Origin: Chiloscyllium plagiosum
Lineage: Eukaryota
Direction: 5' to 3'
DNA: 64,000 nt
Assembly: GCF_004010195.1 (NCBI RefSeq)
Contig: NC_057736.1
Span: forward strand, 33,635,839 to 33,699,838
The stretch's first letter is position 1; each line of letters opens with the position of its first letter. The notes beneath the pieces are model-generated. The model did no database searches, was not told the DNA's origin, and saw only the letters and a list, made by a program, of their open reading frames with translations. The position numbers were made by a program, and so were the translations under genes. Positions 53,228 through 61,051 of this stretch are shown in pieces.

Positions 53228-54772
53228 CAGAGATAATGATCTTTCAAGGATCCTTAATTACTGGAAGAGGGCTGGAGTATTGGAAAATTGCCACTGTAAC
53301 ATATTCATTTAAATTGGAAAGGAGACCAAAAGCAGTAACAATAGGCCAGTTAGCTTTGCTTCCAATAATGGGAGATGTTAGAATCAAAAGCTCAAAAGGA
53401 GACATTTAGAAATGCACATCACAAGTCAGCAAACTCAGCATGATTCACGCAGGGGAAGTCATGCTTGAAAAATTTCTTAGAATACTTTGATGAGGTAACA
53501 AGCTGGGTAGATGAAGGGGAAACTGTGGATGTCATATATTTGAATTGTAAGAAGGTATCTGATAAGGTCCCATTTATTAGGCTATTTAATAAGAACCCAA
53601 AGTGTTGGATTATTACATTAGCATGTATAGAAGATTGGTTAACTAGTAGAAGTCAGATTTGGGACCAGGGGATATTTTCAGGATAGCAACTTATGGAGTG
53701 CCAAAACGGATCAGCACTGGGGCCACAACTACTTGCAATACATATTAATGACTCAGATGAGGGAAATTAATATATAATTGTTTGCAGATAACACATAAAT
53801 TAGTGAGAAGACAAATGGCAAATCTGCAGAGGGCAACAGACAGGTTAACTGAATTAGCAAAAATTTGGCAGATAGAATATAACGTGGGAAAATGTGAGCT
53901 TGTGATTTTGGTGGGAGATGAATGTTATCAAAATGGAGAAAGATGTAGGATAGAGGGATTTGTGAATCTGTGCATAAATCACAAAAAACTCCCAAAAAAG
54001 TTCAGCACATTAACAAGAAGGCAAATAAAATGTTGGCCTTTATTTCAAAGGGAATGCTGTCCAAAAATAGGGAGGGCTTCTTAAAACTACATAAGGCATT
54101 AGTTAGATCACACCTGAATGACTACAAACAGTTTTGGTCTCCTTATCTGAGAATAAATATACTAGCATTGGTTGCAGTCCAGAGAAGGTTCACAAGGTTA
54201 ACCCTGAGTATGGAGGGATTGTCTTGAGGAGAGGTTGAATAGGTTGGGCCTGTATTCATTGGCATTTCTAGAATTAGAGGTCATCTTATTGAAACATACA
54301 AGATTCTTGAGGGACTTGATAGGGGAGATGCAGAGAGATTTTATTTCATCTAATATTATCTTGGTTACAATCTCAGAGTAAGGGATCACCCAGTTAGGTC
54401 AGAAATGCAGAATAATTTCTTCTCCCAATTGATATTGAATCTGCAGAGGGCTGAAGAGGGTTGTGTCATCAGGTATTCAAGACTGTGGTAGACAGATTTT
54501 TAATTCGTAAGGGAATCAAGGCTTATGGAAGAATGTCAGGAATTTGGAGTTGAAGATTACCAGATCAACTATGTTAAAAAATCTGATGAAGGAGCGTTGC
54601 TCCGAAAGCTAGTGTGCTTCCAATTAAACCTGTTGGACTATAAATTGGTGTTGTGTGATTTTTAACTTTGTACACCCGAAACATCGGCATCTCCAAATCA
54701 GATCAACTATGATCTCATTGAATGGCACAGCTGACTTTCTGGGCTGAATGGCCTACCACAGCTTATCTTTTA
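53228..54772 (+). mobile_element. Old CR1 LINE 3' half
   Basis: ORFs show VDVIYLN.KK..DKVP, WQIEYNVGKC, ALVRSHL and VQRRFTRL. Confidence 0.85.
54574..54698 (+). mobile_element. Penelope cassette (family C) with intact hammerhead core, 13-bp TSD
   Basis: CAGATCAACTATG at 54561-54573 and 54699-54711. CTGATGA-A-GGAGC-GTT-GCTCC-GAAA-GCTA at 54583-54611. Confidence 0.85.
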
Positions 54773-56006: not shown

Positions 56007-56755
56007 CCAATGTTTCAATATGAATAGAGTGTGGAACCTGATTCAATCTTGAAGAATCATCCAGACTGTGTTCTTCGCAAAGCTACATTTGCAAAAATCC
56101 CAGAGAGAGCTGCCTTTACATACTGACACATGCCAGAACTAATGTCATCTGAACACTCCATACCATACTCCATTTTCCTTCAAGGATTAACCATTGTGAC
56201 TAAAATTGTTTTTACTTAAAAGCAAATCTCTGCAAAGAGGAATATATTTCTGTTTATCTTTTATCTGGCACATGGGTTTGTGCCTATGTTTTTGGTAATT
56301 TGCAGGATGAAAGATTTGTATTGCTACATTGCAAACCAATGTTACAGAACATATTTTGCATCTTTGTGGACTACGTTTTGTTTTACAACAAATGTATAAT
56401 TTTAGGCATTTCAAAGTACTACCATTGATGTAACCATTTGAAAGAAAAGTCTAATATCAAGAAAGCCTACCAAAATAACTCCACAGAGGCCAGTATCCTG
56501 TCACCAAGACACCGTTTATTTACACATGGAGAGTCCTGGACACTGATCCAGCTCCCTCAGAGCCGGCTCTCGGAGTGAACAGGATCTCTGACATGTCTGC
56601 TCTTTTTTTTGCACGAATCTTTATTCACATTTCTACCACCAGGAAGAAAAGAAACAATATGTCTGCTTTTTTTAAATATAATATGTACATCCATTTTCAC
56701 ATTCTACTGGCTTTTTGTCAGCTTTTCCCTCTGGATGTGAAATAATTCCACAGAG

Positions 56756-56844
56756 TTAAAAATCACACAACACCAGGTTATAGTCCAACAGGTTTAATTG
56801 GAAGCACACTAGCTTTTGGAGCGACGCTCCTTCATCAGGTGATG
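56756..56844 (-). mobile_element. Family-C Penelope cassette nested in the transduced LTR piece, 15-bp TSD
   Basis: AATAATTCCACAGAG at 56741-56755 and 56845-56859. cacCTGATGA-A-GGAGC-GTC-GCTCC-aAAA-GCTA-gtg. Confidence 0.85.
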
Positions 56845-57140
56845 AATAATTCCACAGAGGCTGGTATTCCCATCACCACGTCACCCTTTATTTACAAGTG
56901 TATGGTCCGGCTTCCTCAGACCCAGCTCTCAGAGTGTCAGAACATCTGACACTCCTATTTTCTTTTACTTTTTATTTTTATTTTTACCCCCACACTACTG
57001 CCTAACTGCGGTGGTGCTTATTTTTTCCCAGCACCCATGTTGGTGTGTATGCAAATGTGAGACACAGTGAAAGACACAAGGTGCACAAATCTTTATTCAA
57101 ATTTCCACCACCAGGAAGAAAAGAAACAACATGTCTGCTC

Positions 57141-57433
57141 TTTTTTTTCTTTCTTTTTCAGTGAGAGACACAAGGTACACCAATCTTTATTCAATTTCCA
57201 CCACCAGGAAGATAGGAAAACACCAGAGTGGCCAGTGACAAGCAGTGCCCTTCACATCGAAGGGCAATGCTCTGTGATCAAAACAGTGAAGGGGAGGGTA
57301 GGGACTAAATCAAAATAGAGTTGGAGAAATGATGCACTCCACTCCCTGCGGCGGCCACCTCTCCCTGAACAACTCCAGGGTGTTGGTGGACACCGTGTGC
57401 TCCTTCTCCAAGGACACCCGGGCTCGAACATAA
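57141..57433 (-). mobile_element. Tx1-clade (L1 group) LINE 3' end: ORF2 C-terminus, 3' UTR and poly(A)
   Basis: Minus-strand translation from 57432 gives YVRARVSLEKEHTVSTNTLELFRERWPPQGVECII, resembling the Tx1-type C-terminal F..RW...C motif. AATAAA and an A tail follow. Confidence 0.75.
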
Positions 57434-59668
57434 ACATGTCTGCTCTTTTTTTTTCAACTACTCCTGTTCTTTTTTTATATAACCCCTACACTACCGCCTA
57501 ACTGCGGTAGTGCTTATTTTTTTCCCCAGCACCCATGGTGCGTGTGTGCATGTGTGAGACACTGTGAGAACATATGTGCTCTTTTTTTTTCAAGAAACAA
57601 AAATGTATTCTATTTTAAATTTTACATGGTTAAGTTCTCCAATAACAATTAAAACTTAAAAAGATTAGATTCCAAACTTATAATAAATGATTTTCACAGG
57701 ATCAGTGAGGTTGACTAGCCATACTTGAAAAATATCACATTGTGAAAGACTTGCATTTGTTAGGACATTTTGTAAGATGCAACAGGAAAACCAACATTTA
57801 TACAGCACAAGAGGAGAGTGCTGATAAGTTAACATGCATTAGTAGCTACATACATTAGATTAAACATGTGTGCTCTTATCTGTCAGCAAGGGCACTCTGA
57901 CTGGGGCTAGATGAACAACCCCAATTAAGGAACACATATTCTATAAGGTCCACCTTGGTTGACCTTGTTACAATCACTACACTGACAATTTCCATATTGA
58001 GAATCAGATAAAACAATTAACTTTACATTGCGATTGGAAAGCTGTGGGACGAGAGAGAGTTGGTGCACTGTTTCTGTTTGGGAACAGCAAAGGATTTACT
58101 GTAAGGAAGAAATTTCAATGTGACAGACGTGCTTTTAGGAATGAGTGCATTTTGTAAATTTTCAATACAGGTATGGTGAAATACCGATTTTATTTAACAA
58201 ATCTTTATTTTCCTCACTGTGCACAGGTCCTGACATCTGCTGACTTATGGTGGATACGATACTAAATGAGTTGGCATAGGATGTAAAATAGCAAAGGGTA
58301 GGAGGTGTGGAGCATGGCTTAACAGCCACAGGTTGTCTTGAAGATAATGATAGGTTATGGAAAGTGGGTACAGTGGCATAGTTTAACAGGAATGACAGGG
58401 GATCGTGGGGATGTGTGCAGTATGTCTGGTGGCAAAGATGCAAATGGATTGAGCATGGGAAGTGTGCATGGGAGGGAGAAGATGAGAGATTACAACTGTC
58501 TTCAGTTTCATTAGCTGTTTTAAAATTAATTTTCCACACAGTATCCCTTTCTCGTGCCCAGCTTGCATCCAGAGTCAGTATCCTCCACCTTTATTCCAGG
58601 TTTGCACCTCCATCCTATTCATCATCTTACAACAGTGCTGCATGTTACTCCAGATTTTTACCTGAGTAGCTGTGCCTGACAAGTCTTGAATGCCTAGTGC
58701 CATGGTCTCTTTGCCAGCCTTGAGCGAAGAGAATGGGTCTCTTCTCCAACACCCGCCCAATGGGATCTTCAGGTCCCTATCAGTGTAACTTTCCCTCTCT
58801 CAGTCTCATCTCCTTTGGAATTGTGCAGCAACACACTGTTAAGGACAGTTCCTGGTTTGCTGTGTTCAAAATGGTTTTACTAAGACACTCAGGGTAAATA
58901 CCAGAAAGGCCCATCTTCCTCTGTTCTGCCTATGCTGAGCACAATACTGTGCAGGAATGTTGCCATGGAGATTTAGCATACATAATGAGGTGAATAGCAG
59001 TAAATCACATGAAACAAGTTATCGGATTTATGTAGCAAAACCCTCCATGTAACTCCCTGAAACTGACATTGGTCAAATTAAAGGAAGATTCAGCCCATTA
59101 TCCCTCTATTACTATTCTTTACTTCCGAGACAAACTAAAATTACATTCCAAAGACCTTTTCATTTTTCCATGGCTAAAAGCCAGTCCCAATTCACAAAAA
59201 CTTTCTCAAGCCAATTTTAATTGAAAACCGAAGACACAGTAATGCAAGCAAAATTAAACATCCAAACGAAATGGTAAAATACTGATCAATATCTTCTCAC
59301 AGCTTCAGTGTCACCTTCTAACACTTTAAACAATTTTGTAAAAAAAAAACAAAATTTTTTAAGCAGGTGGCCATTCCTTTTTAAGACAAATGGATGCTAA
59401 ACTTAATGTTAAACACCACTCAAAGTATTATTACATTTAAAACAGCTATGAGGCAATTCTGGCAGCTGACCTATGTGGAACACAGAGACAAGATGCTTTG
59501 ATTTTTGCTGAGTCCACCCCATTTATAGGCAATTGGAAGCTTCCAATTTTTTTTTATTAAGGACAGCAAATTTGTCACAACATGAAATTTAATTAACTGA
59601 TTACTCAACATTAATAAATTGGGTTTTGCATTAATGCAGATACTCCGGAACTTGGGAAACTATATCCA

Positions 59669-59874
59669 CGATGGGTGAATACAATGGTATTGGGAGAGCA
59701 CTCCCACGTCTCCTACTTCCACACAAATGATCTTTGATAAGAGAATTCCTGATTCCTGTTTCAGTTATACCTTGTGATTTTTACAATCTTGATTGAGCAA
59801 ACCTGGAAGTCCTAGGCTCAAATTCAGGCAGGATTTGGGCCTAGTCACTGCTTACTTTGTGTTTTGAGCTAATA
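59669..59874 (+). repeat. Direct repeat, copy 1 (~207 bp)
   Basis: Aligns end to end with 60842-61051 at high identity by eye. Confidence 0.9.
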
Positions 59875-60841: not shown

Positions 60842-61051
60842 CGATGGGTGAATACTGTGGTGTTAGGAGAACACTCCCACTTCTCCTGCTTCCACACAAA
60901 TGATGTCTGAGAAGAGAACTCCTGATTCCTATTTGTTATTCCTCGTGATTTTTTAAAATCTTGATTGAGCAAACAGCCTGTAGAAGTCCTAGGTTCAAAT
61001 TCAGGCAGGATTTGGGCCTATTCACTGCTTACTTTGTGTTTTGAACTAATA
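60842..61051 (+). repeat. Direct repeat, copy 2
   Basis: Aligns with 59669-59874. Confidence 0.9.

Follow-up and report, generated by a model that had tools for sequence, protein, structure and literature searches.

The described elements closest in habit are the crocodilian Tx1-8_Crp and Tx1-4_AMi, which prefer LTR retrotransposons as targets (Kojima 2015, PMC4494074), as does the LINE analysed here. According to the main text of that article, they form part of a Keno-related group, whereas the present LINE groups with Tx1L, the two being set apart by description, and the protein matches of the present LINE included no sequence bearing the name of Tx1-Mar, Tx1-8_Crp or Tx1-4_AMi; the main text gives neither a position within the LTR nor arrays, which the supplements might. 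Tx1L of Xenopus laevis (P0004), the closest named protein (45%) and a member of the same tree clade, likewise uses a mobile element, in its case the piggyBac-type DNA transposon Tx1D (PMC4494074, main text), whereas the target of the present LINE appears to be an LTR promoter region. In Drosophila, R1 arrays arise by re-insertion into duplicated targets and later unequal exchange (McGurk and Barbash 2018, PMC5932611), and resemble the present locus in that the duplicated target keeps the site and head-to-tail units are parted by target; unlike R1, as far as the consulted part of that article describes it, the present family forms numerous small arrays, dispersed and made up of short 3' ends and mixed passengers, in which shared junctions carry differing tails. 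For L1, a growing cDNA can pair with nearby homologous DNA and duplicate it, and read-through RNAs move flanks (bioRxiv 10.1101/2024.08.27.596794, with templated insertions also in the consulted part of PMC11702581); in the text consulted, these templated insertions are rare (22 instances), concern the non-specific human L1 and do not amount to repeated growth of site-specific arrays.

The locus lies at 56471–57981 of a window of 64,000 nucleotides from Chiloscyllium plagiosum. Our main reading, to which we assign a probability of about 0.72, is that a Tx1L-lineage LINE inserts into a Gypsy-like LTR at its TATA-like box and that the resulting stack grows by fresh insertion and by re-copying of resident units. 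The features are as follows.

56471–56602, minus strand: downstream half of the host LTR, likely R-U5, ending in the first target word (alignment with an empty natural copy)
56591–56602, plus strand: local variant of the target word, first copy (T1), next to the TATA-like box of the LTR on the minus strand
56603–56656, minus strand: spacer 1, poly(A) and 44 bp of LINE 3' UTR, the poly(A) about 9 nt after an internal AATAAA
56669–57128, minus strand: spacer 2, LINE 3' end, poly(A), foreign target word, foreign LTR half, about 60 bp of its flank, poly(A)
56756–56844, no strand assigned: short repeat of 89 bp inside spacer 2, flanked by a 15-bp duplication of its own (56741–56755 and 56845–56859)
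57141–57433, minus strand: spacer 3, poly(A) together with 3' UTR and the final 40 codons of a Tx1-type ORF2 (40% identity, Tx1L residues 1254–1293)
57446–57569, minus strand: spacer 4, LINE 3' end with two T runs parted by a foreign target-like word at 57456–57470
57582–57863, minus strand: spacer 5, poly(A) and unique non-LINE sequence with a single full-length donor at C5:96788223
57864–57981, minus strand: sixth target word (T6) and upstream half of the host LTR, likely U3 (alignment with the empty copy)

The 12-bp target word occurs six times (56591, 56657, 57129, 57434, 57570 and 57864; at most two mismatches each), at the positions given in the earlier note; T runs directly follow the first five copies, and the sixth continues into the LTR. 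Re-measured, the spacers are 54, 460, 293, 124 and 282 bp long, exactly as had been claimed, and their removal does restore one LTR, with 56471–56602 and 57876–57981 aligning end to end with the empty copy L022 (238 bp). Parts of the LINE 3' end are found in four spacers with three different poly(A) starts, also in agreement with the earlier note; spacers 1, 2, 3 and 4 correspond to positions 96–139, 1–139, 79–357 and 1–84, respectively, of the one natural LINE copy used as the reference. Overlooked until now was a second, foreign target word within each of spacers 2 and 4. A scan of the 64 kb on both strands, with two mismatches allowed, returned 12 matches to the word, of which the array contains half; the clustering of six oriented, T-tailed copies in 1.3 kb is not due to chance. 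Tandem Repeats Finder reported no array in this region, as expected from the unequal spacers. Read contigs from run X1 cover 56542–56706 with one difference and 57805–58400 with none, and a contig from X5, a second sample and study, covers 57591–58400; these short-read contigs cover the left and right junctions separately, none of them reaching from end to end of the array, and X1 possibly comes from the very sample that was assembled. With this support at both junctions, an assembly artefact is unlikely, and it is left possible for the middle of the array because single contigs stop short of spanning the whole. Among the sampled reads of run X21 (about 2 in 100), those over the LINE parts were strand-biased, 77 of 2,123 matched at 99% or better and none matched the unique spacers; the expression evidence therefore concerns the LINE family and not the window locus.

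The host solo LTR measures 238 bp and is split by the array at a TATA-like box, immediately behind which the target word sits; judged by its sequence, the region around this box is a putative LTR promoter. PBS-like or PPT-like sequence flanks several copies of the LTR, and frames near its copies gave sub-threshold Pfam matches to rve (E 6e-05) and to an aspartyl protease (E 0.013), with no single copy showing the domain order. Because of these flanks and weak protease and integrase frames, the LTR is oriented on the minus strand, and the host repeat appears to be Gypsy-like. The target duplication of the LTR itself is not clean (three of five letters), a 5-bp duplication being clear by eye in LTR copies L017 and L023 only. 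The possibility that the two LTR halves are unrelated was not supported: compared with 23 empty copies, the window sequence is 83% alike in the left half and 75% in the right, and the empty copies among themselves are 76% and 77% alike. A first look at the genome gave 2,908 candidates for the downstream half, and the common form of the target site has 1,431 exact pattern matches.

The assignment of the LINE to the Tx1 clade, proposed earlier, was supported by a Tx1L-like C-terminus in spacer 3, a 571-aa natural frame of the family and a tree. For the 571-aa frame, which is 96% like the C4 copy, the best family-named match is Xenopus Tx1 ORF2 (45% over the full length), outranked by three unnamed turtle proteins. 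In a tree of 24 rows, which used 20 of the 120 listed matches, with short and long-branched outgroups and the L1 row absent, the reverse transcriptase groups with Tx1L and two turtle proteins (support, 100/99); human L1 scored only 65 bits. By tblastn, Tx1L is covered from residue 1 to 1292 in pieces on L075 and L077, i.e. from the endonuclease to the C-terminus, with both copies broken. The RVT_1 domain was found in the LINE frames with Pfam, and the endonuclease family was not detected in the frame-broken pieces. A CCHC zinc knuckle, a feature of ORF1 in the Tx1 clade, was read in the broken ORF1 frame of L075. No intact ORF2 was seen among nine loci checked for long frames, the long frames listed there crossing N gaps. 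A 29-mer of the LINE 3' end has 3,527 exact genome matches, hence at least that many LINE 3' ends. A more diverged Tx1 copy (L079:2190-6480; C5:96780189-96784455), 82–87% identical in DNA to the present LINE (family A) and its sister in the tree, lies 4 kb downstream of the donor site of spacer 5.

Two of the spacers can be traced to donors. For spacer 2, the genome holds one further match to the unique part (both of two candidates considered), at C4:20577096, with 95% identity over 79 nt. The LTR at this C4 site has the same internal deletion as the LTR half in spacer 2, and its target holds a long array of its own, including a near-full LINE and N gaps; the exact donor unit within that array is not pinned, the best candidates being 84–91% identical. 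Since the unique C4 match flanks an LTR with the same deletion and a long LINE array, spacer 2 is likely a 3' transduction, made from a read-through transcript of a LINE end, the LTR half and its flank. As in L1-type 3' transduction, the unique flank lies downstream of a LINE in the donor, and spacer 2 has poly(A) and a target duplication. The 89-bp repeat nested in spacer 2 was inserted after arrival of the spacer, because the C4 donor is without it at that place. This repeat, possibly of Penelope or hammerhead origin, is very abundant, has a second copy in the window (54583–54671, 94% identical to that at 56756–56844) and draws many poly(A) reads in run X21; in an Rfam search of 56400–58000 with E values of up to 1, the three matches were weak and of no relevance, and there was none to the 89-bp repeat. 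For spacer 3, a first look at the genome gave 1,624 candidates.

Spacer 5 differs from C5:96788223 by 13 mismatches in 273 nt and carries AATAAA 18 nt ahead of its poly(A) junction. This one donor and its poly(A) signal support the capture of a non-LINE sequence, and spacer 5 likely derives from a polymerase II transcript, of which it would be the 3' end. In the 40 kb or so upstream of the donor, neither an exon (by eye) nor a copy of the LINE (family A) was found, and the search yielded no parent gene. A 23-nt donor segment is absent from spacer 5 of the window and kept in the second sample. The orthologous contig of organism B fits from 57863 rightwards, most of spacer 5 being hardly covered, which is a faint indication that organism B lacks spacer 5. 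Directly upstream of the donor is a tRNA-like element with a short tandem tail (L062:1790-2103, on C5), which we take to be a SINE, and spacer 5 stops at that tail.

A transfer in the outward direction is suggested by a poly(A)-tailed LTR half on C3, located behind a full-length LINE and 95% like the window LTR. Of five rare letters considered, it has four in common with the window LTR among 87 other copies, the next best having three, and it bears the unusual target word of the window except for one letter. From these shared letters, the window locus, its allele or a close sibling was probably a donor too, to the C3 copy. The surrounding array of about 9 kb (L075:500-9800; C3:82084000-82093300) contains the full-length broken LINE followed by the transduced LTR half that closely resembles the window's LTR, and one 5' junction is seen in it about six times.

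To what extent the LINE is bound to the LTR was examined in the first 100 matches of the 29-mer in order along contig C1, which form 66 clusters, all fetched; the exact 29-mer requirement biases this sample to young LINE copies. An LTR half lies beside 42 of the 66 clusters (27 with both halves, 8 with the left alone and 7 with the right alone), and some of the hosts with only a left half may be LINE heads or transduced halves and not true LTRs. In the remaining 24 clusters, no LTR half is present in the fetched stretch; some are cut by N gaps or long copies, and others are plain off-target insertions. Likewise, by eye, at least seven of the 30 best LINE matches are in unrelated sites with their own duplications. 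Viewed from the target, T-tailed inserts were present at seven of the first 30 LTR sites read fully and, by eye, at 22–25 of the first 100 listed. In LTR-anchored arrays, 46 of 78 units directly precede a near match to the local word, which supports duplication of that word with each unit. The earlier claim of LTR targeting thus stands as a strong preference and falls as strict specificity: the targeting is strong and relaxed. Kojima's main text counts a Tx1 family as target-specific when one repeat occupies more than 20% of its flanks (PMC4494074), and the LTR accompanies 42 of 66 clusters. A far weaker aim, in which the LINE loosely favours accessible DNA with a short CCTG-T-run motif and the TATA region of the LTR is simply the most frequent suitable site, would agree with the often motif-like off-target sites and with the third or so of clusters having no LTR half; we consider it very improbable, as 42 of 66 clusters fall at one position of a 0.24-kb repeat and the LTR-like sequence at the 5' end of long copies points to a long association.

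How the stack has grown is most directly approached through the 5' junctions of its units. The 5' junction of spacer 1 is that of spacer 2, their poly(A) starts differ, and both read A at a position where other LINE copies examined read G (the reading of spacer 1 is supported by match D5, 92% over 64 nt). We compiled 196 units in 59 clusters, leaving out matches shorter than 35 nt, units cut by N gaps or ends, and units past reference position 715. The same 5' junction, within 1 nt, is found in 122 of 507 within-array unit pairs, compared with 8.8 ± 3.0 after shuffling (maximum, 22 in 5,000 shuffles), an excess of about 14-fold that touches 27 of 40 multi-unit arrays; the pairs are not independent, 57 of the 122 coming from two large arrays. 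Microhomology was tried as the cause and rejected, the shared stretch being no longer than in controls (1.2 nt vs 1.1 nt). Because the sharing exceeds that in shuffles and includes spacers 1 and 2, resident units were likely also re-copied during array growth. The earlier note had regarded the array as a log of independent RNAs, with each spacer a separate insertion. That independence survives for part of the array, spacers 2, 3, 4 and 5 being unlike in junction and origin, with two donors on other chromosomes, and pairs with different junctions diverge within an array about as much as pairs across arrays (means, 0.93 and 1.17 of expectation). As an account of every spacer it is improbable, given the excess of shared junctions that microhomology does not explain and the junction and variant letter common to spacers 1 and 2.

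The shared-junction pairs themselves could have arisen at the DNA level after insertion, if dimers were duplicated by unequal exchange or slippage and their tails were then changed by gene conversion or deletion, with no template switch. Such a route has been described for R1 arrays (PMC5932611, in the part consulted), and here shared-junction pairs have about half the control divergence over most of their length (0.45–0.77) and several groups are identical at every common variable column. In pooled pairs, divergence climbs with distance from the shared junction, from 2.2% to 7.6%; per array the gradient is weak (the near part is less divergent than the far part in 15 of 22, with p = 0.05 and medians of 0.42 and 0.47). 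Rare letters are seldom common to shared-junction units (7 of 45, 3 of 66 and 2 of 75), and the evidence for copying therefore lies mostly in the junction itself. This rarity and the weak per-array gradient keep whole-unit DNA duplication a live rival. We nevertheless judge it unlikely, though less so than strictly independent insertions, since poly(A) starts differ in 49 of the 122 shared-junction pairs and two linked subfamily marks differ inside three of 21 shared-junction groups, both of which suggest new tails on old junctions, and since the two-unit arrays with one shared junction in L123, L125 and L126 would need an exchange through only about 12 bp.

A further bond between LINE and LTR is found at the 5' end of long copies. 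Among 15 LINE 5' heads located by motif in the fetched loci, four reach a target word through LTR-like sequence, one nearly does, and ten are joined to part of the LINE's own 3' region. The long form of the head scored 79.5 against the LTR (shuffle maximum, 36.5), whereas the deleted form in L075 is not above shuffles (32 vs a maximum of 35). The LTR-like head of long copies suggests that they borrow the LTR promoter, and we infer that master copies of the LINE arose inside LTR arrays and use this promoter. Transcription from a flanking target has been proposed for SINEU (PMC4494074, main text).

The same LTR site also holds a second passenger family of about 2.4 kb (L077:660-3105, on C4), with GC-rich internal tandem repeats, poly(A) tails and 5' truncations, pieces of which are present in L003, L010, L092, L100, L116, L123, L125, L151, L188 and L196. 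By eye, no convincing coding frame was recognised in it, and it resembles a non-autonomous element that partners the LINE. Two copies contain an inverted part (L125:383-1523 and L167:1693-2619), as twin priming would give. Separately, the window has a direct duplication (59669–59874 and 60842–61051), with the copies about 1,175 bp apart and 87–96% identical in pieces (D1, D3 and D13).

In the main reading, of a LINE aimed at the LTR whose stacks grow by insertion and re-copying, the LINE would likely nick one site at the TATA-like box and insert by target-primed reverse transcription, the 12-bp word being duplicated. The endonuclease would cut the T-rich strand, on which poly(A) RNA would prime. 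Any poly(A) RNA borne by the LINE proteins could then be copied, for example LINE RNA processed at one or another of several poly(A) sites, a read-through of a different array (spacer 2 and probably spacer 4) or, now and then, the 3' end of a cellular RNA (spacer 5). In part of the events, the cDNA would switch to the adjoining resident unit, copy its 5' junction and target word, and re-anneal at the cut; such a template switch would leave a new tail with an old junction, as spacer 1 may have been formed from spacer 2. As long copies open with an LTR-like head, an insertion behind the TATA-like box could be transcribed from the LTR promoter. It is possible, and we put it forward only tentatively, that LINE and LTR together form a self-renewing hub, in which the head, on landing behind the TATA-like box, rebuilds a working promoter and brings the target along, arrays import and export RNA copies, and cDNAs routinely copy the junction of a neighbour. 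Export would be represented by the transfers from C4 to the window locus and from the window locus or its allele to C3, and target-primed insertion with local strand switching would be the regular engine of tandem growth.

Our literature search, with Repbase and subscription journals outside it, returned no paper on this LTR target or on junction-sharing Tx1 arrays. The suggestion that the target had not been described may hold for the exact LTR site and does not for its kind, as LTR-preferring Tx1 elements (PMC4494074, main text) and R1 arrays (PMC5932611, in the part consulted) are published; aimed insertion into LTRs and target-regenerating arrays are already on record, which limits the surprise. 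The locus adds a new and precisely placed Tx1 target, the TATA region of an abundant LTR, and with at least 3,527 LINE 3' ends and 1,431 exact LTR sites, the arrays offer natural material for studying how a LINE cDNA is joined at its 5' end. Traceable donors provide source-to-offspring links between chromosomes, and filled and empty LTRs could be used as phylogenetic markers. If copying of a neighbour's junction is common, tandem repeats can grow during insertion itself.
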